Source of the DNA: Pachysolen tannophilus NRRL Y-2460
Lineage: Eukaryota
Assembly (NCBI GenBank): GCA_001661245.1
Contig: KV454013.1
Location: 962,502 to 1,026,501, forward strand
Direction: 5' to 3'
DNA: 64,000 nt
The translations under genes were made by a program, and so were the position numbers. Under the pieces are notes generated by a model. The model was not told where the DNA came from. It was given only the letters and a program-made list of their open reading frames with translations, and did no database searches. Position 1 is the first letter of the stretch. Every line of letters begins with the position of its first letter. Below are positions 21,188 to 64,000 of the stretch, piece after piece.

Positions 21188-22062
21188 TTTTATAATAATA
21201 CATAGTAATTATATAGTTAATTCTTTCAATTTGTTGTGGTTAATTAATCATTTCAATTCCTCTATAAATTTTGTATGAAAGAAATTTATTTCCTCGGAAA
21301 AATGCTCTAACTCCAAGTAGAAAAAAGAACATTCTTTTCTTTTTTTTATTACTTTTTTTACATTCGAGCTACTAAGCTACTAAGCTACTAAAGTTAATGT
21401 AGATTGTAAATATAGTAAGTAAATAGTTAATTGGAGGAGAAGATGTGGTCATCTATACCTCATAGCTGGAGTAACAATTATAGATACACATGTATATAGA
21501 GGTGCTTTTTTTCAAACTCATCCCAAAATATTTAATACCGAAAAAAAGCAATAATGAAAAAAAAAAAAAGACTATACATTATCTTAAGACTAACCATGCA
21601 TTCATTAAACATTAATACTAACTAATTGTACACAAAATTAATAATAAATTAGACCCTGTAGGAAAGTCCATTTAGAATTTATTTAAAATTAATTTTAATT
21701 TTAATTTTAATTTTGATTTCATGGCAAATCACCAATGCGCATGGTAAATTATTTTATATGAAAGGCTTTCAAATTTTTTTTTTACCTGCGGTGGATTTAA
21801 CTTTCGTAGCAAATGAATTTTTTCAATTTATAAAGGAGAAATTAGACACTGTAATATAAAACTAACAGAAATATAAATTTGAGCAAAAAAGTGAAATAAA
21901 GTCCAATCATCCTCATCCTAGATGACTATTAAGAAAGCCAAAAGGCAAAGCTAACAAAAAAGAAAAAAGTGAAAAAAAAAAAAAAAAAAAAAGAAAAAAG
22001 AAAAGAAAAGAAAAAAAAAGAAGCCTGCTTTCACCGCAACAGCATATTCAACACCAACATCA

Positions 22063-22982
22063 ATGGACTCGGCATTTAACAGCTACAACAATCCATCCAA
22101 TACTGCCATGAATCCTAACTATAACACCGGTGAATATACAGTTGGTCAATCATTCAACAATACAACCACATCACCGTTTGAAAGTTTAAACTTATCAGAC
22201 ATACCTAGTCTTTCAAGTTCAAGAACAAATAGTTTTGCTTCCAACACTTTGATATCACCATTGACGAGCAATAATAGTAATGGTATTCTTAATTCAAGTA
22301 CTGTAAGCTCAAATTCTAATACAGGATCATTAAATAATTCAGTGAATCCATCGAATTTTCCAAACCCAACTAAAAAAATGAAAAAACTTTACTACCAGAA
22401 AGTAAAAGATTAATTTTACCTAGTACTGCTTCAATATCTGTTACATCAAGTCCAACGAAAACATCATCATTAGATTATAATTTAAACGATCTCGTTAAAT
22501 TTCAAAAAATTAGAAGACCTTCATATTCATCAGATTCATCTTTGTCTTCAATGTCAGATACAAATGGTCAGAATAATAACTCCAATTTTTTCAATCCATC
22601 ATCTAATCGTCGTCATTCAGATTCAAGATTATCACTTGCTGAATTAACATCTTTTTTAAAATTGGGTGATGATTTGAAAGAAACTGCCACCCGTGAGAAA
22701 AATATCTTGACCGTATTAAAAGATGAATTAGGTTTTGAATTGGGTTTAAAGACTTGGATAAGAGATACTTCTTTAGCTAAAAGAGTTCAATTAATTGAAA
22801 ATTTGACTGAAATTGTCGAAAACCGATACCACTACGGTTACGATAAGAAGATTATAGAAGTTATCGTAAGAAGAGCAAGTTATTATACAATGCAAGGAAG
22901 ACTTAGGAGAGAAAGGAGAATTGAACAAAAGGGTAAGATGAACTTGTCTTTGGTCAATAAAGTCAGAAAAAATAAAAAATAA
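22063..22982 (+). CDS. YBL029W-like protein, interrupted by a 1-nt frameshift near 22372-22386
   Basis: The 22542 ORF frame is open back to the A-runs at 22372-22386; C-terminal LGLKTWIRDTS and RRASYYTMQGRLRRERR resemble the YBL029W-type domain. Confidence 0.7.
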
Positions 22983-23186
22983 TTGTAGCAGAGTAGTATA
23001 TAATTTTGATATTTACTTCTCACTCTCAGTTCACTCCCCAAATATACATATATATATGTGTCATTTCTTTGTCTCTTTTCAGGTTTACATTTGTTTCGTT
23101 TTTTCTTTTTTTTTTTTTATTAAGCTATATTTCTTATCAGTTATTTATTTCATTATTTTGTATTTATTGCTTTTATATGGTTGTTA

Positions 23187-23771
23187 CTATTTTGTAATCG
23201 TAGCTAATGTATTAACAACGTTATCACCGGAACAATTACGAGTCAACATCTGCAACTCTTCTTGTAGCTTATCAATTATCACATTATGTTCATCTTTACT
23301 ATTGCCATTGCCGTTTGCATTACTATTGCCATTGCTATTGCCATTGATATTAGTGTTCCTAATGTGGCTTCCGTCATCATTGTTTTGATGTTTGTCTATA
23401 TTTACCAAGTTTTTATCCCATTCTGAATTTGCCATATTTATAAAATCAGCCTCAGAATTCATATTGAACATACCAAAATTGGTTAAATCTTTATCATTGG
23501 CAACTATTGGATCTCCTAAATTAAAACTATAACTCTTCAAAGATTGATCATTATCATATAGTCCTCCCAACAAGGCACCATATGGGTTTTCAAGCAACAG
23601 CAGACCATCGTTCATCAAACCTATTTGGTGATGAGCATTACCATTACCATTACCACTGCCACCGTTATTACTATTGAATCCCAACAACGATGATTTCTGT
23701 GTGGCTGTTGAGTTACTGCTATTGGTACCATAGATATCTAATAGTGCCTGGTTAAATAAACACTGATCCAT
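23187..23771 (-). CDS. Hypothetical Asn/Gly-rich protein
   Basis: 194-aa ATG-initiated ORF with NGNGNG tracts like other genes here; no family recognised. Confidence 0.45.
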   Translation of the reverse strand: MDQCLFNQALLDIYGTNSSNSTATQKSSLLGFNSNNGGSGNGNGNAHHQIGLMNDGLLLLENPYGALLGGLYDNDQSLKSYSFNLGDPIVANDKDLTNFGMFNMNSEADFINMANSEWDKNLVNIDKHQNNDDGSHIRNTNINGNSNGNSNANGNGNSKDEHNVIIDKLQEELQMLTRNCSGDNVVNTLATITK

Positions 23772-27369: not shown

Positions 27370-28376
27370 TAGAGCCAAAAAACAAAAAAAAAAAAAAGTT
27401 AGAAAACTGAATATTATAGATTTTTCAGAATGTAAACAAAGACATAAATAATAATAAAAAAAAAAAGTTACTAGTTATTTTTAGGCTATCTTCAGAATAG
27501 ACTGATAGTCTGGTTAAGATGGTTTAAACCATGATTGGTTGTTATACCCTTATTTTCCCTGCTTGGACAATTTTTTTTTTTGTTCTTTAACAAAAATGGG
27601 TTTTAACTTTCAATCCAAACCTTTTTTGTACAAAATAGTGGTTGCTATGATGTCCTCAACCTCGTTGCATTATTTGGAGTTTTGTTTAATATCTAATTAA
27701 ATAAAAATTAATAAGATAAGGGGCTAAAGATGTGGTGCTAACTAAAAATCTATCACTTGTGTCTAATAATGGAAAATGCATGATATTATAATTAGATGCA
27801 CCACAGTATCAAACAATATCTTTTAGCTTAACTTCTAGAAGATAAGGAATTTTCTAAATTAATAATTTTTCTTATTTGCAAAAAAAAAAATAAATAAAAA
27901 AATTAAATTTCAAAGTCCTATTCAACAATCCATGTTATCCACGGATACATGATGATGATGATCATTATGTCTAGATAGATCATAATAAAACTAAATCCAA
28001 TTATAAAACCATATCCTTTAGTATGAATGTAAAGTTCATTAATTCCTTAATTTTTTTTAAATAATTAATACCGAGGCCGATTATCAAACTAACTCATCCA
28101 TTCTCTTCACCTTCTATCGCTCGTTATCTTTAATACCGAAAAAAAAATGAAAGAAATAATCAAATTTCCTAAAACAGAATTTTGTATTTTAGAAAACGAC
28201 CAAAATAGATTTTAAGATTTTTTTTTTATTTTTTCTTTCTAAGTATTTTTGATTTCGTTATTCTTTAATTTTAACAAGAATCAAAACAAGACAAAACAAG
28301 ACAAAGAATTGATTGTTTAATGATTTTTTTTAAGTTTCAAATAATTCGTTGTATCTATTAGTTTTTTTGGTATATA

Positions 28377-30641
28377 ATGGTTGATGTATCAATGCGGAAG
28401 AGCAGAGCGCCCAAGGGTGATTGGCGAAATATTCCGAAAAGCAATGGTGAAACAAATAATGCTAATCCATATGCTGGGTTGACTTCATTAGGTAGAGCCA
28501 ATTATTATAACAATGGTAATAATATTAATGATAGTATTAATGATGCTGATACTTCCGGTATCACGATTAATGAAAGTGGAGGGGATTTGCAAGCTGATAA
28601 TATAGACAAGGCAAGAGTTCATAGGAGATTTTCTGTTAGATTAAATGGACCTCAACAAGCTGATTTAACGAGTCATTTACAGCATCCATTGCCGATGAAC
28701 TCAGGGGTTTTGGTTCAACAGCAGGCACAGCAGGCACAACAGCTACAACAGCCGCAGCAAAGACAACAGCAATGGCAACAGCAGATGCAGCCGAAGCAGC
28801 AGTCGTCGATGTTGTTACCGCCACAGCAGTTTCCTCTGCAACTGTCTTCTTCTTCTCCTTCTCAGGCCCAAACTCTTACAGTACCGGATCTCAAACCAGC
28901 ACATAAGAGACGTGTTTCTGCTTCGAATGTTCAACCTGATACTAATGATGAATTTGCAATGTTGTTAGATCTGAACTTGGATGCAAAAAGATTTGTTGCT
29001 GATAATTTATCAAATGCTACTGCTATTAAGATAGATGAATTTACCAAGAAATTAAATAATTTAAATATTAAAGTTGATGAAAATATTAAAGAAGTTATTA
29101 ATCAAAGTTTAGAAAATTTATTGAAAACTTCAAGAGATTTAGTAGAAACTGAAAATGATATAAAAAATTTGAAATTAACATTTAACGAATTGAATGATAC
29201 TATTCAAAGTATGAAACAATCTGCAGAATCTGTATTAACATTAGCTGAAGATCAAGTTTCTTCACCTTCAAAAATTGGAAGAAAACCAAAAAGAGATAGG
29301 AGTAGTGTCTTGGTAGTACAGAAACTTTGGGATAGAGAATTAAGAAGTTTGTTTAATCATGTTGCTGGTGCACAACAATTGATTTCTCCATCACCAGGAA
29401 GGCATATTGTTGCAGAAAGTGGTAGGTGGTATGAAGTAAGTTCTACTACATGGAAACCTTTACAATCAGCACATATTTTTTTATTGAATGATTTAATAAT
29501 GATAGCTACAAGGAAAAGACCTAGAAATGATGAAAGTGAAAATGGTACTAATGGTAGCATAAGTAAGTCTCAATCATTAGTTGCAAGTCAATGCTGGCCT
29601 TTAAGAGATGTTAAATTATTTGATCTTAAAAAATCGAGTCGTTCAAAAAATAATGATGGTGATAGAGCAGATTTTTTCACCATAACAATACAATATAATT
29701 CAATGAAATATGTTTATCAAACAGATAGATATGATCATTACGATAAAGTGATAACGCATTATAGAAAAGCAAAAGATGAATTACGCAATTTATTAGAAAT
29801 TGAACAAGAAAAATCCCAAATTCCTTCAAGAACTACTTCAATGAATCAAAAAAAATCTTTTGGAAAAGAGAAAAGATCATCGGGAATATTGAGTAGTACA
29901 CATTCTCGTTCGAAAAGTTTGGATATCTTGAAAGATGCTGCAATTTCTGGAATAAAAAGTCTTGATGATCATATTGATGAATTAGATATAAATATTGCTC
30001 GTCACAAGTATGATAGAGCAGTGACTTTGTTTAAATATGTTGAAGATGAAGTAAATAAATACACAAATAAAATTGATATGAATAATCAATTAGAAGAATC
30101 TGTTCAATTATTAGAAAATTTGAAATCAAGGTTACGTAATAGAAAGGAAATTATTAAAAATAATATTATACGAGAATTTGAATATGATAAAATTTCTAAA
30201 GAAGCAATAATTGATTACGTTTCATTGTTAAAAAATTTGGATTTGTTGGTCTTAGGAAGGACATGTTTCTTAAATTCAAGGACAAAATTAATAAATAATT
30301 TGATTTCCAAAGTTGAAATTGATGGTAATATCCCACAGTATATAACACAGATTTCAATAATAAGATTTCAAATTATTAAATCAGCGGTACTCATATTCCA
30401 AGAAATGTTTGCTGATGAAATCAAAGAAGAGACTTGTTTTTTAATAGATTGGTGTTTTAATGAGGTTAAAGATCATGTTAAATTCTTGAACCAACAACTC
30501 CATGGAGTCAATTCCAATAGTACAGCTTTTGAGAAATCTATAAAGGTAATTCAGAGACAAGTTGAAAATTTGAAAAATATTGGAGTTGATGTTGAATTCC
30601 TATTAGATGATTTCTATCATTATTTTGACAAGAATCAATAA
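28377..30641 (+). CDS. EXO84: Exocyst subunit Exo84
   Basis: RDRSSVLVVQKLW, LFNHVAGAQ, PGRHIVAESGRWYE, TWKP and HIFLLND (PH domain); Vps51-like N-region. Confidence 0.92.
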   Translation: MVDVSMRKSRAPKGDWRNIPKSNGETNNANPYAGLTSLGRANYYNNGNNINDSINDADTSGITINESGGDLQADNIDKARVHRRFSVRLNGPQQADLTSHLQHPLPMNSGVLVQQQAQQAQQLQQPQQRQQQWQQQMQPKQQSSMLLPPQQFPLQLSSSSPSQAQTLTVPDLKPAHKRRVSASNVQPDTNDEFAMLLDLNLDAKRFVADNLSNATAIKIDEFTKKLNNLNIKVDENIKEVINQSLENLLKTSRDLVETENDIKNLKLTFNELNDTIQSMKQSAESVLTLAEDQVSSPSKIGRKPKRDRSSVLVVQKLWDRELRSLFNHVAGAQQLISPSPGRHIVAESGRWYEVSSTTWKPLQSAHIFLLNDLIMIATRKRPRNDESENGTNGSISKSQSLVASQCWPLRDVKLFDLKKSSRSKNNDGDRADFFTITIQYNSMKYVYQTDRYDHYDKVITHYRKAKDELRNLLEIEQEKSQIPSRTTSMNQKKSFGKEKRSSGILSSTHSRSKSLDILKDAAISGIKSLDDHIDELDINIARHKYDRAVTLFKYVEDEVNKYTNKIDMNNQLEESVQLLENLKSRLRNRKEIIKNNIIREFEYDKISKEAIIDYVSLLKNLDLLVLGRTCFLNSRTKLINNLISKVEIDGNIPQYITQISIIRFQIIKSAVLIFQEMFADEIKEETCFLIDWCFNEVKDHVKFLNQQLHGVNSNSTAFEKSIKVIQRQVENLKNIGVDVEFLLDDFYHYFDKNQ

Positions 30642-30899
30642 ATAAAACAAAAAACCTTGGAGTTTTCAAGTATCTGCCTATCAATTGTAGTCGTTACCGT
30701 AATAGTTATCATTGTAGTTATCGTTGTTGTTGGTTGTTGTTGTATCTCTCTTTATATACGACTCATTATTTGGTCGTATAAATCTCCTCAAATTAGTATT
30801 GTATTTTTTGGGTTGGCATCCATATCCAATATCTTTATAATTTGTTTGCTTTTACTTTACTCATCTATTAATTTTCAGAAAGACATCAAATCGGAATAT

Positions 30900-33137
30900 A
30901 TGTCGGCTAAATCGACTGTATATTCACAGTCTTTAACAATGGACTCCACTTTATCTGCGACGTCTATATCGTCTGCGAAATCACCTATATGTGCTATGTT
31001 TTTATGTAAATTTGATGTCCGGACGGGATATAAAATTGAATGGTCTAAAACAATTAATAATAAAATTTCATTAAAAGGTTTGGAATTTAAATCATTACCG
31101 AGTGGTTTACATAGTATTTCAAGAGATGTGATTGCCTTTATTCAACAAAGTGCATCTGCTGGCGGTGTTCAGGATGAAAGAGATAATGGTAATGAAGGGA
31201 GGAGAATAGAGGGTGATAATAATAACGTCTTTTATGATGATGACGATGATTTGTTCAAGAAAATTTCTTATGGTGTTTCTGTTTTTCATCAAAATGCAGC
31301 TGATGGTCATGATAGTATTAAATCAAGAGCAGATGTTAAGATGTATTCTTTAGGAATATTGATTGATCCAGATTTGAACAGCGAGTTTAATGCAAAATCT
31401 AAATCTGTTTCTAAAAAATTATTTGATAAAATTTCTCCTACTTGGAGACCCATAGTATTCACCAGTGGTTGGGAGTATATTGATGATTTGGATAACATAT
31501 TGTTGGATTGGATGAATCAAACTTCGAGTAATAAGAGCAGCAATGATGATAAGAGTGATGGTAAAGCTGATAATAGTACCAAAAATCAAGGTGTTTTATC
31601 AAAATATATGATTTTTGAAAAATTCTTCAATAACAATAAATTACTAATGCCTCCCTCGGGTGCAAATAGTGCAGGAAGTGATTCAGTGATAACGAAATCT
31701 TCCACATTGAATAATCATTATAGTGCATCATCTTCTGCAGATAAGAGAACTAATAACACTAATAATAATACCCCTTTCCATGTTCATCACATGTTATTAG
31801 CTTTGAAATCATTAATAAAATCTCTTGGACCTTTGATTTTTAAAGTTTGGAAATTAGCTTTATTGAGGAAAAAATTAGTTCTTCATAATTCATCAACTAT
31901 TGAAAGAAATTGTTGTTATATTTACTGTATATCTGTATTATCCACAATTCCTAGAGAGATATTACCAAGTTTAATATCTAGTGGAGCGAAAAATTTTGAA
32001 AAATTACAATATTATCAGCCATTGTATAATATAGGTATCAATGATATTGATTATGTTCAAAAATTGATTACTAGAGATCCAAGTTTAGGTTTTATAGCTT
32101 CTACTACAGATGAAATTTTATTATTTAAGGTAAATCTTTATGATTATGGTATTAGATTTCCAAATAATATTGAAAGTGATGATGAAGGTACTTCTTTGAG
32201 GAATGGTAGTATTTCTCCTGAAGGTGAAAAGAATAATGATTTTCTTCCGCATGTTACTAGTTCTCTTGAATATGAGCCTGGTCTGAAAAGAAATACCAAT
32301 CATCCTATAAGAGCTACTCAAAGAGATTATAGAAGGTTTAAAATTTTAACAAATGCTTTCAAGATATATGATATAGAAAATTTATCAAGAAGCCATAATA
32401 ATTTGACAAAAGATATTAATGATTTAGAAATGACTAAAAAATGGTGGTTACAAGTTTCGGAACCAGTTTCCTGGAAAGAATATGCATGGAAAGGGTTTTC
32501 ATGGTGGGCAACCGCTGGAGAGAATGATAGAAGTAATTATGGAGAAGAAAGTGATAGGCAAGGTTTAATTACCATGATGGATCATTATAATGTGAATAGT
32601 AGTTCAGATGAGAATCTGTATGAAGGGCTACACTCTAGAATTAGCTCATCTGGGGAAGATGGTAAAGGAGATTTAAATGTTGACATGATTGATTCTTTAA
32701 ACATTGTTGGGTATTTCCAAACAATGACAAACAAAATTTTTGAAGTTTTGATTGACTTGGTGAATAACCATGAAGAAGGTAGCCGTCATGGAGACAGGAG
32801 CAACAGCGAAGAAGATGAAGGTGATTCAGAAGAAGAACTGGAAGGCCCAGCAAATGCAGATGACGATTACGTTGAAAACGAAGAAGAAGAAGAAGAACAA
32901 GATTTGCTAGGGGATATAAGTGGTGCTACTCAAAACAATAACAATGGCAATAGCAATTCTAATGGCAATGTCGAAAAGTCACAGGAAACTTTATGGATTG
33001 ATCCTAGTGATATCTATGAAATGGGTTTGGATCCTTATAGTTCTTCAGATTCTGAATTTGTCATTGAGTTGGTGAAGGTTTGGTGGGGGAAAGAGGCAAA
33101 AGTAGGCTCATATTTGGGAAATGTCTGCTGCTTTTAA
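30900..33137 (+). CDS. ANR2: Anr2/LCHN (DENND11-like) protein
   Basis: MFLCKFDVRTGYKIEW, LEFKSLPSGLH, ATQRD, GFSWWATAG, MGLD and Cys-rich C-terminus VCCF; ATG at 30900. Confidence 0.8.
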   Translation: MSAKSTVYSQSLTMDSTLSATSISSAKSPICAMFLCKFDVRTGYKIEWSKTINNKISLKGLEFKSLPSGLHSISRDVIAFIQQSASAGGVQDERDNGNEGRRIEGDNNNVFYDDDDDLFKKISYGVSVFHQNAADGHDSIKSRADVKMYSLGILIDPDLNSEFNAKSKSVSKKLFDKISPTWRPIVFTSGWEYIDDLDNILLDWMNQTSSNKSSNDDKSDGKADNSTKNQGVLSKYMIFEKFFNNNKLLMPPSGANSAGSDSVITKSSTLNNHYSASSSADKRTNNTNNNTPFHVHHMLLALKSLIKSLGPLIFKVWKLALLRKKLVLHNSSTIERNCCYIYCISVLSTIPREILPSLISSGAKNFEKLQYYQPLYNIGINDIDYVQKLITRDPSLGFIASTTDEILLFKVNLYDYGIRFPNNIESDDEGTSLRNGSISPEGEKNNDFLPHVTSSLEYEPGLKRNTNHPIRATQRDYRRFKILTNAFKIYDIENLSRSHNNLTKDINDLEMTKKWWLQVSEPVSWKEYAWKGFSWWATAGENDRSNYGEESDRQGLITMMDHYNVNSSSDENLYEGLHSRISSSGEDGKGDLNVDMIDSLNIVGYFQTMTNKIFEVLIDLVNNHEEGSRHGDRSNSEEDEGDSEEELEGPANADDDYVENEEEEEEQDLLGDISGATQNNNNGNSNSNGNVEKSQETLWIDPSDIYEMGLDPYSSSDSEFVIELVKVWWGKEAKVGSYLGNVCCF

Positions 33138-43620: not shown

Positions 43621-43891
43621 CGTAGGTAATAACAACACAACACCTATTTCAAGTTATCAAAGTTATCTATCCACTTTTATTTAAAAAAGAAAAGAAATAT
43701 AATTTATTTTATTTTATTAACTTTTGTATTTTCAATATTTTTTCAATATTTTTCAAAAGTTTTCATTTTTTTATTTTGATATTTGAAATATTTTTATTTT
43801 ATTTTTTTAAATCATTAAAACATCAAAAATTATTCAATTTTTTTTTTTATAGTAAAGGAACGGGAGGTTTTTTTCTCTGGCTATTTGAATA

Positions 43892-44851
43892 ATGGAATTG
43901 CATGTTTGGGGTTCTTATAAGGATGGTGTGATTTCTAACTTTGATCCTGAATGTTTGGCTGCAATTTATTATATAATGTTTACTGAAACTGATGTTAAGG
44001 TAGTACCGTCTTCAAATAGTTTTAATTACAAGCTTCCATATTTGAAGAAGAATGATGGAGAAGCGATAAGTGGATATGAGAGTATAGTTCTGTATTTGGA
44101 GAAAGAGAATGGGGGGAAATTAGATAATTGGCTTTCAAATGAACAATTTTTGCTTAATAATGGGTTAAAAGTATTTATAATGGATAAGATACATTCATTA
44201 ACACAGTATGTTTTATTTTTAAATAAGGAAAACTATGAACAATATACAAGAGGTTTATTTAAAAAACTATTACCATTCCCCATGCAGTACAACGCCCCTT
44301 TGGTTTATAGAGATGATGCTGTTAAAAGGTGTTCCAATGTTGGATTGAATTTGGATACTGGGATGTTGCTAGGTGGTGTTGGTTATGAAGATAGTACAAT
44401 TGAGGAATTATTAGAATCTGAAAAGAAACTTAAAAATACTCCTAATTTAACAAGATTACATTCTCAAAAGCAACAAGAAAAGTTAAATGAGTTACTTTTA
44501 AGGAAGAATTCTATAAATAACATGCATTGTATTCACCTAGCTGAAAGTTATTATAACCGGATCTTAGAATTTTCAAGAGAAAATAATAGAAATGATGATT
44601 TTTCATTATTTATATTTGGAGAACAATTATCAAGCAGTGATTTATTATTTTTTGCTCAGTTAAATTGTCAAACCTTAGATGTCTTACCAAATAATTTTAT
44701 GAAAATTTACTTAAATTTCAAGTTTCCAAATTTAATTGCTAAATTGGAGAAATTCAACAATGAATTTGTAAATTTTAAGAATTTAAACATTGAATTACCT
44801 AAAGATAAAGATTACCCATCACTATTTAATTACATTAAAACTTGTTTATAA
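43892..44851 (+). CDS. SAM37: Mitochondrial SAM complex subunit Sam37 (metaxin-like)
   Basis: MELHVWG, FDPECLAA, LPYL, NYEQYTR and FPMQY; synteny with RNA14 and SEN15. Confidence 0.88.
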   Translation: MELHVWGSYKDGVISNFDPECLAAIYYIMFTETDVKVVPSSNSFNYKLPYLKKNDGEAISGYESIVLYLEKENGGKLDNWLSNEQFLLNNGLKVFIMDKIHSLTQYVLFLNKENYEQYTRGLFKKLLPFPMQYNAPLVYRDDAVKRCSNVGLNLDTGMLLGGVGYEDSTIEELLESEKKLKNTPNLTRLHSQKQQEKLNELLLRKNSINNMHCIHLAESYYNRILEFSRENNRNDDFSLFIFGEQLSSSDLLFFAQLNCQTLDVLPNNFMKIYLNFKFPNLIAKLEKFNNEFVNFKNLNIELPKDKDYPSLFNYIKTCL

Positions 44852-44888
44852 ATATATATACAAAATAGAATTAAGAAAAAAAGAAAAT

Positions 44889-45281
44889 TCAACTCTTTCT
44901 GGGTCTAACTATCCCATCATGTATAAAATAATATACTATTGTACCATCATTGTTCACCATACCTGCTATTATTCTCTTTGGTCTCTCATTTTCTACCAAC
45001 CTGATACAGTCAAACACAAAATCTGTTTGACTCATTGTAAGTTTCTCATCCATTCCAATAGGAAAGATCCATTCCCTATCATTTCCCTGTTGTTCTTGTT
45101 CTGATCTTGTTTTATCATTAGAAATACTCTCCGATGGTTGTAACTTTTCCAAAGGTTTACCGTTTAACAACTGTATAGAATCATTATCAAAATTATACAC
45201 TTTTAAATCTGACCATAAGTTATAATACTCTAGATTCGTCTTAACCTGCTTCGTCAAAGGTTTTAACTGAATATTTGTCAT
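44889..45281 (-). CDS. SEN15: tRNA-splicing endonuclease subunit Sen15
   Basis: NLEYYNLW, EWIFP and NNDGTIVYYFIHDGIVRPRK. Confidence 0.9.
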   Translation of the reverse strand: MTNIQLKPLTKQVKTNLEYYNLWSDLKVYNFDNDSIQLLNGKPLEKLQPSESISNDKTRSEQEQQGNDREWIFPIGMDEKLTMSQTDFVFDCIRLVENERPKRIIAGMVNNDGTIVYYFIHDGIVRPRKS

Positions 45282-45500: not shown

Positions 45501-47462
45501 ATGTATCAAATACGACATCGTTTGAACAAGAAATTTCAAGTTTCAAACAATAAGAATAATGATGGGTCTCATAATGTATTACCCTTGAGTGGGAATGATT
45601 TTGATAGGAATGATGATAGTAATGGTATTATTACTCTGAATCAAAGACAGAAGAATATAGTGACTTTAGGACATGTTATTAAGCTTCCAGGAGAACTTCT
45701 TCAGTGGCTTTATCGTGGTTCTTTAGGTATATTGTTTTTAGTATTTTTAGGATTTTGTACTATATTACCTATAGATGCTATTGTTCAATCGAAGCAGGCT
45801 TCGAATTTAGCTTTTAATACTTTTGTTATTTTAGGTGCTTGTGTTATATTTATTGTTGTTTCATTGATCATATATTCTGTTAGGGTTATCTTGATAAGGT
45901 TAAATTTACTGGATATTCCAAAATTTTATGTACCTGATCATGCCAAAGATTTACCTCATGATTTTTATTTAATAATTCAAAAAGAGTTAGCTTGGTGTGC
46001 TGAAGTTGTTGAACTGGCAAAACCAAATAAAGTTATCAAACATCCTGGTTTACGTTATAGAAAAATGGATGATAAGAAAATTTTTACAATGAATGAAAAA
46101 AATGATCAAGAAGAAGTAGATGATTATTTGCCAAATTATTTGGTATATGAAGATGTTGTTAAAGTTATAGGAGAAAGAATTAAATTTAATGGTTCCTTTT
46201 TAGCATCTACTAATGACTTTAAAATTCCATTAAGTTTATCCTATAGAGAACTTTTACTTTTTTTCAATGATAATGAAGTATTACATCAAAATTTGGATTA
46301 TTATGATGATTTTATTGAAATTTATGAATATATAAGATTTAGTGGTGAAATGATAACAGAAGAAAATTTTTTAAAATTTATGGAAACTTTTATTAAATTA
46401 ATTAAACTTGATGATGAAGGAATTTCTAATACTAGAGTTAAAAACAATAATAACATACTTAGTCCTAAAAATGAATCAATGGTTAACAAGTCAATAACAT
46501 CATCTTCAATCTTGTCAATTCCAACACTGATTACTGGTAATAATACATACCTGAATAACAACAGACTGTCTTCATATATGTCTTATAATAGTGATGGTAA
46601 TAACGTTATTCGTTCTTTTATTTCTCCTTCTTCAAGTATGAACATTTATGGTGATAATATTCAAAATAATCCCACAAGTATCAATACTCGTTATAATCTG
46701 AAAAGTATAAGAAATTCAGTTAATACCATTGAAGGTGCAGATAAAAATAGGCGCCTGTCAAAATCAAGAATTGTGCAAACTAATAGTGATAATTCATCGT
46801 CCACCCCATCACAGTTATCAACATCTGATAGAGAGCAAGAACAAGAAGAATCCAGTGTTGATTTAGATGGAAGACAAGACAATGAAGAAGATGATTTTTA
46901 TGATTATTTCCGTACAAAAAGTGGGAAAAGTTATAAGATTAGAGAAGAACCACAAAATCTTCAGATTAATAATAATAATAATATTAATAACGTTGAATCC
47001 AAAAGTTTAGATCCAATTATTTCCACAACAAATCATGAAAACCCTGGGAGCGTAATTAGCCAACGTAATAGTTTAGAAAGTCCATTTCTTACAAAAGTTT
47101 CTTCCCTGTCCTCATTGGGTAAATCATCAGGCATATCTTCGCACATATCAATGTCTTCTTCTAGTGGTGAATCACATCACAAAAACCATCATTTGAAACC
47201 ACTTTCGAAATTATCCAATATACTACATAAAGTTACTTCGGCAGACCTGGGAGGTAACAGCAAAGACTACCATTTCAAACTAAAGAAATTTAATTCAAGA
47301 TCAAAGGATAATGCCTTTTTCATGATCGATGACAAGAGCAGCTCCAATAGTGTGATTATAAGACCCGGGAATACACAACTGATGGAAGAGCTTGAACTAC
47401 TCCATACTGCTGGAAGCACCGATTCTGTAGTTTATCATGCTTCCTCTGATAACAGTAATTAA
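45501..47462 (+). CDS. DLT1: Dlt1-like membrane protein
   Basis: Two N-terminal TM helices, LPIDAIVQ, LDIPKFYVP, HPGL and YEYIRFSG. Confidence 0.75.
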   Translation: MYQIRHRLNKKFQVSNNKNNDGSHNVLPLSGNDFDRNDDSNGIITLNQRQKNIVTLGHVIKLPGELLQWLYRGSLGILFLVFLGFCTILPIDAIVQSKQASNLAFNTFVILGACVIFIVVSLIIYSVRVILIRLNLLDIPKFYVPDHAKDLPHDFYLIIQKELAWCAEVVELAKPNKVIKHPGLRYRKMDDKKIFTMNEKNDQEEVDDYLPNYLVYEDVVKVIGERIKFNGSFLASTNDFKIPLSLSYRELLLFFNDNEVLHQNLDYYDDFIEIYEYIRFSGEMITEENFLKFMETFIKLIKLDDEGISNTRVKNNNNILSPKNESMVNKSITSSSILSIPTLITGNNTYLNNNRLSSYMSYNSDGNNVIRSFISPSSSMNIYGDNIQNNPTSINTRYNLKSIRNSVNTIEGADKNRRLSKSRIVQTNSDNSSSTPSQLSTSDREQEQEESSVDLDGRQDNEEDDFYDYFRTKSGKSYKIREEPQNLQINNNNNINNVESKSLDPIISTTNHENPGSVISQRNSLESPFLTKVSSLSSLGKSSGISSHISMSSSSGESHHKNHHLKPLSKLSNILHKVTSADLGGNSKDYHFKLKKFNSRSKDNAFFMIDDKSSSNSVIIRPGNTQLMEELELLHTAGSTDSVVYHASSDNSN

Positions 47463-47782
47463 GACAGATTACATCCAATTAAAACCTCGTTGCTGCAACT
47501 ATTTTAATTTTATTTTTTTTATTTTATTTTACATTTAGGGTTAGGATAATTATAGAAGATTGATTCGAGATTAATCATTAATAACATCAAAGTGAAGTCA
47601 CTGTAGATTCTGTAGATTCTGTAGATTCTGTCGTCGTCGTTGTCGTCGTTGTTGTTGTTCTCGTCGTCGTTGAAATGAGAGCTTGAATTGGTCGTGTGCA
47701 ATGTTTCAAGCAGGTTTCTTTTGAGAGAAGCAGAATAATTTCAAAATATTTATTTATATTTTGAAGATGTTTTCATGTTTTC

Positions 47783-48438
47783 AAAAGGTTGACTTAAAAT
47801 ATTTTTAGCTTTACCCTTTTTATAATAATTATCAGGAGTACATCTAATCAATGGGTTTAAAGAAACATAAGTCTCATCTTCAGGTAAATATATAACTTCT
47901 TCAAACTTTGAGCCTTCTTTCATATTATGTGCTTTTAACTCTTTTTGATCATAAATTTTTGTAGTTGCAGTTTGGAACCATGTACTATATTGTGGTTTAC
48001 CCTTCTTAATATTCCCATTCTTCAGTTGAGGAGTAACAGTTTTAGGAACACCGGCATTGTTCAAAGAAATCCATGGCTCCAACCCATTTGTACTTTCAGG
48101 TGGTTTGGCACTAAAAGTGACTCCCGCAATAACCGTTGGTTGAACAATTTCTACTTTGGTTTCATAAATAGTTCTTATCCATGACCTTGGTTGTTCCGTT
48201 ACCTCGTACTCTTCTTCCGCTTTCTTCTTCTCATCTAGTTGTTCCAAATAATCCTTATTGTAAATAACCTCTTTAATTGGTTCTCTCTTGTTCACACCTG
48301 TTGGATATGAAATTACCACTGATGATGTTGTTGATATTACCGCCAGCGTTGAAGAAGGTAATATTTCCAACGATTTCACGTTAATAAACGTTGCTGAAAA
48401 AATTAACAAAAAGAAAAAAAATTCTCCTTCATCACCAT
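47783..48438 (-). pseudogene. PSG1: 5' half of PSG1 (YKL077W family) inside an inverted segment
   Basis: WIRTIY, VIAGVTFSAKP, PWISL, LKAHNM and LNPLIRCTP; homology ends at SQPF (47783); ATGs at 48438/48432 are 1 nt out of frame across a T8 run. Confidence 0.8.
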
Positions 48439-48522
48439 TAAGTCTCTCCAAAGTGATTTCAACTAATTTAAATCTCTTGATTAACCTGTATCTTAATAAT
48501 TAGTATCAACAAATGAAAACAT

Positions 48523-49164
48523 TGTACACCAAGAGAAAATTCTAATTTAAAAGTTGATGAAGTTTATTTTATTACTTGGTATACAAAATTCTATACAAAG
48601 GAAACTGAAAATGTTAAGATTCATTTATCTTATATTAAAGAATCTACTAAAGATAAAGGTATGAAAAAGAGAGAATTTATGAAATTTACAAATAAAGGAG
48701 AACTTCCAGGAACTTTTTTCACTTCAGATTGGATTTTAAATAGAGATGGATTTTTTCCTTTAGAAATTCAAGAAAGTTGGTTAAAAGGTGAATTTCATAA
48801 AAAAGTTTTAATAACTATACAACCAAATACAATCCCCGATGAAGAATTTGATTTATTGAATTCTAATGGTACTGTAGTTAATTTTCAAAAAGGTTCTATT
48901 GTTGCTAAAACAACTAAAGAAATGAAAGCTATAGAAGATGAAGGTGGTGCAAACTCTGACAACATTTATTATGTAATGATGGCTACTCCAACTTGTGTCC
49001 TCATTTCCGTAGCAGGTATGTACTTATTTGTATTTGTTATGAGGAAAAATAGAGATTTCTCTAAAATCAAAGAGAATTACTTGAAAAAAAGAAAGAAGAA
49101 TAAGAAAGAGTATTCAAAGTTACCTCAGTATAAGAGTGATGTTGAATTGAAGAGATTGGATTAA
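48523..49164 (+). pseudogene. PSG1: 3' half of PSG1
   Basis: CTPRENSNLKVDEVYFITWYTKF, VKIHLSY, KR site, FFTSDW and C-terminal TM helix; in-frame TGA just upstream at 48514-48516. Confidence 0.8.
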
Positions 49165-49426
49165 GAGGAAAAAAGAGCAAAAAAAAAAAAAAGCAATTGT
49201 GTTCTGCACTTTTGTACATTCATCATTTACTATTATAATTACTTTTTAATTTATCTGTTTCTTTATTAGCCATTCTAATTACCCCCTGCAAATAGATTTC
49301 CCCTTTTAAATACCACTGACTTTGTGTGATTTATATTTTTAGCACAGTTAATAGTAATATTAAATTTTTGAAATTTTTTGGATTTGTTGAATGTCATTCT
49401 ATATGTAGAAATAAAGTGAAAAAATA

Positions 49427-56277: not shown

Positions 56278-57477
56278 TCAATACAAGAGCAAATTTTCCT
56301 TTATTATAGATCTACTAATGTCCCTTGTAGATGCCCATTCTTGAATTTTACCCTTTAATAGCACTACATCGTAACTATCAGATGATAAAGATGATAATTT
56401 TTCATTATTCTGAATATCATTCTGATTTTTCAATTCATAATCCTTATATATATTTCGATTTTTTTTCTCTGCCAAACATCCCATATACTCTAGAGCCATT
56501 AATATATCATCTATTCTAAATCCTGTCTTAATTGATATTTCTTCTAATGTAATTACTTGAGTTATATCATTTATATTATCATTTTCTTTTAATTTTATAT
56601 CTTGTTCAGTTGAATTCAGTAATGATCCTTCTAAAAATTCTCTTGCTAAATATTTTGACCAATAATTTAAATATCCAATTTCTCCAAATTCAGATAATGG
56701 ATGTTCAGGACCACTTATTAATGATTCAAATCTTGAAAGCTCATATGAAAATGAAATTAATAACTGACCTAATTTTTGCCTTTGAAAAGGTGGGAATATA
56801 AGTATACATGCTAAATTATTATTATCCCAAGAAAGTAATTCTCTTGAGAAAAATCCTTTAGGTATTAAATAATTTGATTTTTGAGTATCATTTGTTGAAA
56901 TTTTATTTGTTTCATTACAATCACCATACATCATATAAAAATCATAATGATCTAATGAAAAAAAAACTGATTTATTATTTAAAAACATTTTTGCAAAAAG
57001 ACATAAATTTTGACAAAATAATTTATGTCTTTTCCCCTTAACTTTTCTTATTGATATTTTTTTAGAATCATCTTTATAAACTGTTCTTCCAGGTAATTTA
57101 ATTTTATATTTACACATAGATCTATGTTTTAAACAATCAAGTTCATCATCTGTATATTTAAAACAAGAATCACAAACATATAATTTTGAAAGCCAATATT
57201 TATGACTAGAATCAAATTCCAAAAATTTTTTCAAATTATTTCTTGATCTTACATCTTTATTCATAAATTTAAATGCTAATTCTTGTGGCTCATTTTTAAG
57301 AAAATAAACTGCATTACCATACCAAGTATCAAACTCATGATCACCAAGAACCACTTTCTCAATATTTCTCTTGTCCAAGATTCCATAAAGGTCCTTCTCA
57401 GTTTCAGTTTCAGTTTCACCATCTCTTTCACCATCATCATCAATTCCATTAGTATCATAATTATGCTGATCGTTCAT
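56278..57477 (-). CDS. SAS2: MYST histone acetyltransferase Sas2
   Basis: FDTWYG, C2HC finger, QNLCLFAKMFL, NNLACILIFPPFQR and GPEHPLS. Confidence 0.88.
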   Translation of the reverse strand: MNDQHNYDTNGIDDDGERDGETETETEKDLYGILDKRNIEKVVLGDHEFDTWYGNAVYFLKNEPQELAFKFMNKDVRSRNNLKKFLEFDSSHKYWLSKLYVCDSCFKYTDDELDCLKHRSMCKYKIKLPGRTVYKDDSKKISIRKVKGKRHKLFCQNLCLFAKMFLNNKSVFFSLDHYDFYMMYGDCNETNKISTNDTQKSNYLIPKGFFSRELLSWDNNNLACILIFPPFQRQKLGQLLISFSYELSRFESLISGPEHPLSEFGEIGYLNYWSKYLAREFLEGSLLNSTEQDIKLKENDNINDITQVITLEEISIKTGFRIDDILMALEYMGCLAEKKNRNIYKDYELKNQNDIQNNEKLSSLSSDSYDVVLLKGKIQEWASTRDISRSIIKENLLLY

Positions 57478-57744
57478 ACTCTACTAAACTCTACTAAACT
57501 CTACTCAACTCTACTCTACTCCACAATAAACCAAGATCACACCAAGATCACACTAATCCTCGTCCTCGACTCAAAAACCCATCAATTGGGATCCTCGGTC
57601 TTTATAATCACCTTCCAATAATTCTACTCAAACAAATCAAGGTATATATATATATATATAAATATATTAATCTTTACCAAAGCCTGCTTCACCCAAAAGA
57701 AAAAATACATATATATAAAAATATATATATATATATATATATAA

Positions 57745-58208
57745 NNNNNNNNNNNNNNNNNNNNNNNNNNNNNNNNNNNNNNNNNNNNNNNNNNNNNNNN
57801 NNNNNNNNNNNNNNNNNNNNNNNNNNNNNNNNNNNNNNNNNNNNNNNNNNNNNNNNNNNNNNNNNNNNNNNNNNNNNNNNNNNNNNNNNNNNNNNNNNNN
57901 NNNNNNNNNNNNNNNNNNNNNNNNNNNNNNNNNNNNNNNNNNNNNNNNNNNNNNNNNNNNNNNNNNNNNNNNNNNNNNNNNNNNNNNNNNNNNNNNNNNN
58001 NNNNNNNNNNNNNNNNNNNNNNNNNNNNNNNNNNNNNNNNNNNNNNNNNNNNNNNNNNNNNNNNNNNNNNNNNNNNNNNNNNNNNNNNNNNNNNNNNNNN
58101 NNNNNNNNNNNNNNNNNNNNNNNNNNNNNNNNNNNNNNNNNNNNNNNNNNNNNNNNNNNNNNNNNNNNNNNNNNNNNNNNNNNNNNNNNNNNNNNNNNNN
58201 NNNNNNNN
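57745..58208. other. Assembly gap (464 N) abutting an (AT)n tract
   Basis: Run of N. Confidence 1.
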
Positions 58209-61175: not shown

Positions 61176-62744
61176 CTAGAAATTGATATCCTCGCCTCTA
61201 GCAAGTTGTATTATCAAATAAATATTTAACAAGCTTATTAACCCCCACGTCAATATACTTGCACAAGTCATAAAAGTTCCGTTCGTAAAATCAACATATG
61301 TCTTCTCTTCGCCATTTCTTGTTTCGTTATCGTTATACCTATTTCCATTAATGTTGTTTCCACCAGTAAGTAAATTACTTCTTTCACTTATAACTTCATC
61401 GTGTTTGGTGACTTCAACTTTCATATATTGTTTGGAACAAGTAAAATAAATCAACGGCGCACTAACAAATGGTAATAACAAGCTTAAAACTACTTGACTA
61501 GCGTTTAAAGATTGACCTATTCCTTTTCTTCCAGTGGTGAACACCATGATAAGACATGGTATTATTGCAAGTAATCTAGTCAATATTCTACGGATCCAAG
61601 GTTTTAACGACCAGTTAATGAATCCCTCAGAAACAATTTGGCCAGCCATAGTACAAATAATACCCGCAGCCTGTCCACTAAACAACATTGCACAAGAAAA
61701 CACTAATCCGGCCACAGGTGATATATACAGAGCAAGCATATCGTAAATTGAAAATAAATCGGCATCATCGGCATCAGGCTTACCATATAATGTTGCACCA
61801 GCGACAATCAATATAGCTGAATTTACAAATATTGCAATAAGGAAAAGAGAAACAATCAATTCTGTGTATGAATACAGTAAGCAATAGTTTATTGCTTTCA
61901 AAGATGGTTTGTATTTCTTGGTTAAATCTCTATGAGTATTCTCTGAAGATAACAATTGCTGCTGATTTTGTTGCTGCTGCTGTTGCTGCTGACTGTTAGT
62001 CAATGAAGGAAATAAAGGTTTATAATATCCATTTTTAACATCATAATCTTTGAGTCTAGGTTGTACCAAAGCACTTCCCAAGAATAAGCTATGTGGCATC
62101 ACTGTAGCTCCTAATATTCCCAAACTCAAATACACAGCCTTTTGCTCCAACACCACTTTTGAACTTGGTAAAAATCCTAAAAATAATGCCTTCTTATCAT
62201 CAATATGAATCTTAAACAACAAACTAATAAAACAGAAACATGTAAGTGCCACTAAGGAACTAACAAACAGTTCAAAAATTCTAACTTGTTTCATAGTACC
62301 TTCATCTCTATAAGCAAATAGCACAATTACAACATCCAAAGCTGTTACTAAAATCCCAATTTTCAATGGAATATTAAACAAAAGCTCAAGAGAAATCGCA
62401 GTACCAACAACTTCAGCTAAATCTGTTGCAACAATGGCAATTTCTGTCAATATATATATCAACAAACTAAGACGCTTATCCATATGTAGCCTGCACATTT
62501 CAGCAAGGTTCAAACCTGTTACAGAACCCAATTTAATACATAAAGACTGAAGCAACACCGCAAAAAGATTCGAAATACATATAGTAAATAGTAAATGATA
62601 TTGATAGTTCCCTCCTGCACTCACTGAAGTCGAATAATTTCCTGGGTCCAAATATGCAACACTAACTAATATTCCAGGACCAATAAACTTTACATATTTA
62701 AATATTATTGCCTTAAAAGAAACCCATCTGTCTACTTGATTCAT
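61176..62744 (-). CDS. SMF3: NRAMP metal transporter, Smf3-type
   Basis: AYLDPGN, GATVMPHSL and AGQIVSEGFINW; convergent with RSC58 as in S. cerevisiae. Confidence 0.85.
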   Translation of the reverse strand: MNQVDRWVSFKAIIFKYVKFIGPGILVSVAYLDPGNYSTSVSAGGNYQYHLLFTICISNLFAVLLQSLCIKLGSVTGLNLAEMCRLHMDKRLSLLIYILTEIAIVATDLAEVVGTAISLELLFNIPLKIGILVTALDVVIVLFAYRDEGTMKQVRIFELFVSSLVALTCFCFISLLFKIHIDDKKALFLGFLPSSKVVLEQKAVYLSLGILGATVMPHSLFLGSALVQPRLKDYDVKNGYYKPLFPSLTNSQQQQQQQQNQQQLLSSENTHRDLTKKYKPSLKAINYCLLYSYTELIVSLFLIAIFVNSAILIVAGATLYGKPDADDADLFSIYDMLALYISPVAGLVFSCAMLFSGQAAGIICTMAGQIVSEGFINWSLKPWIRRILTRLLAIIPCLIMVFTTGRKGIGQSLNASQVVLSLLLPFVSAPLIYFTCSKQYMKVEVTKHDEVISERSNLLTGGNNINGNRYNDNETRNGEEKTYVDFTNGTFMTCASILTWGLISLLNIYLIIQLARGEDINF

Positions 62745-63316
62745 GACAACTTTCTTTAACGTTCTAATTTCTCTTTATCTAGTCTACTCTAGTCTAGTCT
62801 AGTCCAGTCCAATACCCAATCTACTACTCCTTAAAACTTAAACCCTTCACTGTTCTTTACAGCTTTTAATCAATATATAAAGTAATAGAAAGAAATGTTT
62901 TTGTCTCTTCACCAACTTAACGTGTATTATACTTTAGGCATCCAGTGCGGCTCATTTCTAAAGAAAGTTCACATTCTTTTTGAGCGGTCTTCACCAGGTG
63001 ATGGAGGTCAATAGAACTAGACATAGGATTAGGAAAAGGTAGATATAAAAGTGTGTTTTTCGATCAGATGTTTGATAGATTGTCTATAGAGAGATATTTT
63101 AGTAGAATTTGGAAGAACTTTAGCAGAAACTTAACAGCTCTGGTCATTTTTTTAACCACAAAGCCATATACATTATTACATTTGAAGAAAAAAAAAGAAA
63201 GCAAAAAGCAAAATCATTAAAAGAACAAGAAACTCCAAAGCAAATGACGACAGACCACCCAGGCGGAATAAGAAAAAAAAAACAGTGATTTCAACCAGTT
63301 AGCATGATTGTTTTAA

Positions 63317-64000
63317 TTAGATACCGTCTCTAGCGACTTGGACTATGGCATATATGTTCAACATACTGATGAATATCCATACCAGGGTTGCAATGACAGT
63401 AGTTACCCAATTGTTTGCTACGATTTTATATTTCTTATCTGTTACCTCGTTTTCATTTTCGGAGTATCTTCTGTGAGTGTAATTATTTGTGATGGTAGTT
63501 TCTGGATGTTGCGTATCAACATTGCTATTATTAGTTTCATTTTCTAAATCATTTAATTCAATTTCATGGAAAATGTTATCAGAATTTTTATTTTTATTGT
63601 CGTTATCGTTATCATTATTTGGTCTATGGAAATCATTATTTGAAATATCAACTCTCATAATTTTTTTACTGCTTGTAAAATATATTAAAGGTGCAATCAA
63701 AAATGGTAATAATATGGATAATACAACCTGACTTGCATTTAAAGCATTACTCAATCCACTTTTACCAATACATAGAGTAATAATTAAACAAGGTACAATT
63801 GCTATTGATCGAGTTGCTAATCTTCTTTGCCAAGGTTTTAAATTCCAATTAATGTGACCTTCAGAGACAATTTGACCTGCAATTGTACAAACAATACCGG
63901 CCGATTGTCCCGAACAAAGTAATGCTAACATGAAAACAGTTGATACTGCTGGAGATATAGTTTGTGCTAATAACGTATGAATAGTATACAAGTCTGCATC
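63317..64000 (-). CDS. SMF1: NRAMP transporter, Smf1-type; 3' portion only, runs off the window
   Basis: SGQSAGIVCT, GQIVSEGHINW, PWQRRLATR and ALNASQVVLS. Confidence 0.78.
   Translation of the reverse strand, partial: DADLYTIHTLLAQTISPAVSTVFMLALLCSGQSAGIVCTIAGQIVSEGHINWNLKPWQRRLATRSIAIVPCLIITLCIGKSGLSNALNASQVVLSILLPFLIAPLIYFTSSKKIMRVDISNNDFHRPNNDNDNDNKNKNSDNIFHEIELNDLENETNNSNVDTQHPETTITNNYTHRRYSENENEVTDKKYKIVANNWVTTVIATLVWIFISMLNIYAIVQVARDGI

Follow-up and report, generated by a model that had tools for sequence, protein, structure and literature searches.

A PSG1 gene split by a 740-base inversion in Pachysolen tannophilus is very probably a draft-assembly error

In a public assembly of the yeast Pachysolen tannophilus NRRL Y-2460, a gene of the Psg1 family is divided between opposite strands by an inversion with exact boundaries. 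This arrangement raises the question of whether a chromosome of this yeast has undergone a rearrangement that breaks a conserved gene, or whether a piece of the draft sequence has been joined backwards. The window analyzed here is a stretch of 64,000 nucleotides (contig KV454013.1, positions 962,502 to 1,026,501 of the forward strand, assembly GCA_001661245.1). It is AT-rich yeast DNA with a GC content of 0.30, and all coordinates below are those of the window. Our analysis indicates that the 740-base inversion is very probably an error of the draft assembly and not the state of the chromosome, in which PSG1 would run without interruption along the plus strand for 432 codons.

Two parts of a Psg1 gene on opposite strands

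The minus strand carries an open frame at 47750-48499 that is Psg1-like up to ..NILSQPF, whose F codon occupies 47785-47783, and that then continues through 10 residues (ENMKTSSKYK) to a stop. On the plus strand, a TGA at 48514-48516 is followed by AAA CAT and then, from 48523, by TGT ACA CCA (CTPREN..), in a frame that stays open until the stop at 49162-49164. A preliminary description of this DNA had the Psg1-like sequence give way to 10 unrelated residues after ..SQPF at 47783, a coordinate that proved exact, and had the plus strand resume at 48523, two codons past an in-frame stop, exactly as found here. The features of the locus are as follows.

47783..48522, no strand: segment of 740 bases, opposite in orientation to the read-derived contigs of 4 of 4 runs
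47783..48438, minus strand: PSG1 codons 1-219, with the ATG at 48438-48436; a one-base homopolymer difference breaks the frame in the window
48523..49164, plus strand: PSG1 codons 220-432 and the stop codon, identified by a PF14610 match and by homologue alignment
48414..48421, no strand: run of eight A (T8 on the coding strand) that is A9 in three runs according to read-derived contigs
47767..47782, plus strand: left junction, with two ATGTTTTC units; a third one is found flipped at 48515-48522
48439..48522, minus strand: the 84 bases that precede the PSG1 start codon (placed relative to the ATG), within the flipped piece
47750..47782, minus strand: false 10-residue tail and stop made by the wrong junction; the public 191-aa model P0001 has this tail as well

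The two parts can be joined by turning the segment between them. When 47783-48522 is replaced by its reverse complement by script, one end yields the joint ..CAACCTTTT|TGTACACC.., which reads ..QPF|CTP.. in frame, and the window sequence, uncorrected for the A run considered below, then contains one open frame of 452 codons. At the other end, three tandem ATGTTTTC units are restored. Both outcomes had been anticipated in the preliminary description, namely a single open frame through QPF|CTP and a perfect (ATGTTTTC)x3 array at the opposite junction, and both were reproduced by the script. As presented, the window's own junctions are ..ATGTTTTC|AAAAGGTTGAC.. and ..GAAAACAT|TGTACACC.., with the ends ..TTTTC|AAAAGG.. 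and ..AACAT|TGTACA.., and both are clean, with 1 ambiguous base.

An inverted repeat of 10 bp had also been described at the two ends of the segment. We recovered this repeat, in which 47767-47776 matches 48513-48522, and a repeat search (pair I13) extends it to 15 nt at 87% identity. However, this inverted repeat of 10-15 nt is merely the third ATGTTTTC(AT) unit in its flipped state, and it vanishes into the tandem array when the segment is collinear with its flanks. Further out, in the intergenic DNA upstream of PSG1, positions 47601-47675 hold three perfect CTGTAGATT units followed by a GTC/GTT-rich stretch.

The plus-strand piece matches the Pfam family PF14610 (Psg1) with an E value of 3.4e-44 and 151.3 bits, against a cut-off of 30.1, over positions 28-186 of the 186 in the profile. 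The minus-strand piece matches positions 1-24 of the same profile with its final residues, at an E value of 0.02 and 15.1 bits, which is below threshold when this piece is taken alone. Because the pieces match positions 1-24 and 28-186, the Psg1 domain is cut at about profile position 25-27, which is at the junction.

Alignment to proteins from other yeasts gives the same picture at the level of single residues. The join reads PF|C(T/S)P without a gap in all eight Psg1 homologues aligned, so the join is not a chance fit, and the comparison of the re-inverted translation with Psg1 homologues proposed in the preliminary description thereby bears out the reconstructed protein. Identity to the eight homologues ranges over 45-58% for the N-terminal part and 40-64% for the C-terminal part; Saccharomyces cerevisiae protein P0035, which is among them, shows 43-45% identity to the two pieces. 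The open frame of the collinear form aligns with Psg1 homologues over its whole length.

Compared with the Psg1/Ykl077w family (PF14610; S. cerevisiae PSG1), the P. tannophilus pieces jointly cover the profile and align end to end, and the gene is ordinary once its segment has been turned back. Its N-terminal ~40 residues are weakly conserved, which holds equally when the homologues are compared with one another. Members of the family have an N-terminal signal peptide and a C-terminal membrane span. By eye, hydrophobic stretches are visible in the P. tannophilus sequence at the N-terminus, once an extra base is read there, and near the C-terminus. An intact PSG1 would encode a protein of the Psg1/Ykl077w type that is hydrophobic at its N-terminus and again over a stretch close to its C-terminus. 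Going by the Pfam family name alone, such a protein would presumably stabilize the Pma1 proton pump in the Golgi.

Orientation and homopolymer lengths in public sequencing runs

Public sequencing runs were used to assess the orientation of the segment. Five runs from two studies match the stretch, each containing 0.93-0.94 of 123 sampled words, and none contains all of them; no RNA run is among the matches listed. Logan contigs of runs X1, X2 and X4 (study P1) and of run X5 (study P2), which represent three samples and two studies, were aligned to positions 47300-49300. Run X3 was left out as it comes from the same sample as X2 and X4, and runs X6 and X7 were left out as they hold next to none of the sampled words. 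These are contigs and not raw reads, so they show the presence of a sequence and not its absence, and rare variants are dropped from them.

In each of the four runs, one long contig follows the plus strand on 47300-47782, the minus strand on 47783-48522 and the plus strand again on 48523-49300, with the ends of the pieces shifted by the 1 ambiguous base in X2, X4 and X5. The joints were thus of the 'opposite strands' kind in 4/4 runs, and CCTTTT|TGTACACC is contiguous in every one. There are no other letter differences between contigs and window over 2001 bases. Since the contigs are assembled from 31-letter read words, both collinear junctions are present in the reads of the four runs.

No extra contig was found in the bins that span the window's junctions (47769-47835 and 48506-48572) in the contigs of the four runs. 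The depth in the junction bins equals that of the single main contig in each run (13.7, 179.5, 71 and 121.3), so that the collinear form stands at full depth in all of them. Low-depth variant contigs of 31 letters do appear elsewhere, at 49163-49198, which implies that short contigs of the window's form would have been visible. The preliminary description had named the recovery of the contiguous junction alone as the result to be expected of an artifact, and this is the result that the read-derived contigs gave. By arithmetic, a share of 0.94 of the sampled words is explained by the loss of words that span the junctions (about 5%), and a share of 0.93 by the homopolymer difference as well in X2-X5.

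This homopolymer difference bears on a defect that the preliminary description had missed, which is that, in the window, no ATG lies in frame with the N-terminal piece. The contigs of X2, X4 and X5 carry one extra A behind 48413, making the run at 48414-48421 nine bases long, while X1 lacks it. With the extra A, the ATG at 48438-48436 is in frame and opens an ORF of 432 codons with a hydrophobic, signal-peptide-like start as in the homologues. The lack of an in-frame ATG in the window's N-terminal piece is therefore explained by a one-base difference in this A run. An intron had been considered as the reason for the missing ATG, since AG sites and a TACTAAT-like element occur ahead of the open frame, and it was dropped because the extra base of three runs restores the ATG.

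The same three runs carry one extra A after 49178 (run 49179-49192) in the 3′ flank, and one more single-base gap in the piece 47300-47783 that is unplaced and that may lie within the skipped repeat 47498-47538. The low-depth run X1 equals the window at all homopolymer sites (0 gaps), whereas the three deeper runs differ. This agreement hints, without proving it, that data of the X1 type underlie the window's consensus; that a homopolymer-prone platform produced such data is a guess. That long A/T runs are one base short relative to X2, X4 and X5 suggests systematic homopolymer undercalls in the assembly, and the window contains 128 homopolymer runs of eight or more.

Assembly error, real inversion or switch

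The preliminary description had favored either a real inversion or a mis-oriented piece of assembly. The artifact half of this claim is supported, given that CCTTTT|TGTACACC is contiguous in all four runs, and the half that invoked a real inversion gained no support. That the collinear form and the extra base are present in contigs built from reads is a direct observation. The proposed course of events is that a 740-base piece containing the start codon, its 84 upstream bases and codons 1-219 would have been reversed in the assembly with no gap, and that the A/T run of eight near the start codon would have been called one base short. The flip itself would have been made by the assembler or in a finishing step. 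Signs of draft quality are found nearby, in the form of one-base homopolymer differences after 48413 and 49178 (3/4 runs) and a gap of 464 N at 57745-58208.

Assemblers classically flip a segment when it is flanked by an inverted repeat longer than the assembler's word size. This cause does not apply here, because the flanking inverted repeat is only 10-15 nt long and falls below usual word sizes. Like inversion-type misjoins in draft assemblies, the PSG1 segment is a reversed block with correct inner sequence and with junctions that have no backing from read-derived contigs. Unlike a typical misjoin of this type, it is a small block of 740 bases joined without N, and no inverted repeat long enough to confuse an assembler is present. 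Inversions are counted as a standard class of misjoin in benchmarks of short-read assemblers, according to the available part of one such study (PMC3532452).

In an improbable alternative, an inversion became fixed in the culture or clone used for the assembly. Two breaks would have been rejoined with 1 nt of microhomology and PSG1 would have been knocked out, in an event absent from the cultures behind the four runs. Clean junctions with 1 ambiguous base are what end-joining would be expected to leave, no long inverted repeat is available to account for a flip by the assembler, and the window may have been assembled from another DNA preparation than those of the four runs, whose culture could have carried a real inversion. 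However, all four runs, from two studies, show the collinear form alone, with no other letter differing from the window across 2001 bases, and no run has all the sampled words. The window also matches the homopolymer lengths of X1, suggesting that data of the X1 type lie beneath it, yet X1 is collinear. Moreover, a real inversion requires a second, independent lesion in PSG1, the frameshift at 48414-48421, where three runs show a base-calling difference. We consider it very unlikely that the reference culture carries a real, clonal, end-joined inversion of 740 bases that knocks out PSG1. If it did, the reference stock would be a natural psg1 null, unlike the stocks sequenced in the four runs.

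It is hardly conceivable that the segment is an invertible switch of PSG1 between off and on states, of which the window would show a minority form in cultures, even though P. tannophilus uses flip/flop inversion at its MAT locus (available part of PMC6692504), for the sole inverted repeat is a 10-15 nt by-product of the flipped third ATGTTTTC unit, crossing over within this repeat would not yield the observed junctions, and a contig of the window's form is found in 0/4 runs, where rare forms may be dropped from contigs. The MAT system, as that part of the source presents it, inverts an 8-kb region between 2-kb inverted repeats (PMC6692504). The likeness to flip/flop mating-type switching in Pachysolen, Ogataea and Ascoidea is that a chromosomal segment is inverted, and in the same species (PMC6692504); the difference is that flip/flop systems have kilobase-long inverted repeats and show both orientations in cultures, whereas the PSG1 segment has 10-15 nt and one orientation in the runs. 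In the window, no recombinase family was detected among 39 ORFs scanned against Pfam (4 + 35). The preliminary description had ranked a reversible switch lowest, a ranking that holds given the lack of usable inverted repeats, of a recombinase match and of a second orientation in the four runs. Because contigs drop rare variants, a minority of cells with the window's form could have gone unseen.

The public protein model and annotation of the window

With an assembly error as the preferred reading, the public annotation of this locus can be revisited. The best protein match of the minus-strand piece is P0001, a hypothetical protein of 191 aa from Pachysolen tannophilus NRRL Y-2460, at 99% identity. 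Both NCBI and UniRef list this entry, a truncated model whose last 10 residues are the false ones. At its start, an 'MQ' has been spliced to the N-terminal piece in its middle part, which looks like a gene-caller's workaround. At a CTG codon, for which the standard code gives L, the model carries A, in keeping with the CUG-Ala code of Pachysolen tannophilus. The public annotated assembly shares the window's arrangement and so cannot serve as independent evidence for it. An intact Pachysolen Psg1 was not found in two protein searches, one covering lengths of 136-436 and the other lengths of 378-2000 with only 2 hits, both from other species, and this is weak evidence either way.

Several other gene models in the window merit attention. 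Three overlapping plus-strand open frames at 21973-23385, in three frames and of 146, 202 and 148 codons, have no Pfam match, and they could be one gene with two frameshifts of the same homopolymer kind. The open frame at 43889-44848, which resembles Tom37/Sam37, overlaps a plus-strand frame at 44787-45101 in another frame that may be its frameshifted C-terminus. An EXO84-like frame (28362-30638) is followed in the same reading frame, after one stop codon, by a DENND11/Avl9-like frame (30642-33134), and the two probably represent closely packed genes. The run of 464 N at 57745-58208 adjoins a MYST-family acetyltransferase gene (56281-57480, minus strand) whose zinc-finger match is partial, and the 5′ part of this gene may lie in the gap. 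On the minus strand at 61179-64000 are two tandem open frames of the Nramp family of metal transporters, the second of which runs past the end of the window.

Together, the reversed segment and the undercalled homopolymer give a conserved, intact gene the look of a broken one, a finding of little biological weight that is nonetheless useful for curation. The error has already entered public protein sets in the form of the truncated 191-aa model. Within 2 kb, two long A/T runs differ in length between the window and the deeper runs, in addition to one unplaced single-base gap. Artifacts of this kind should be expected wherever gene loss, pseudogenes or small inversions are scored in this genome.
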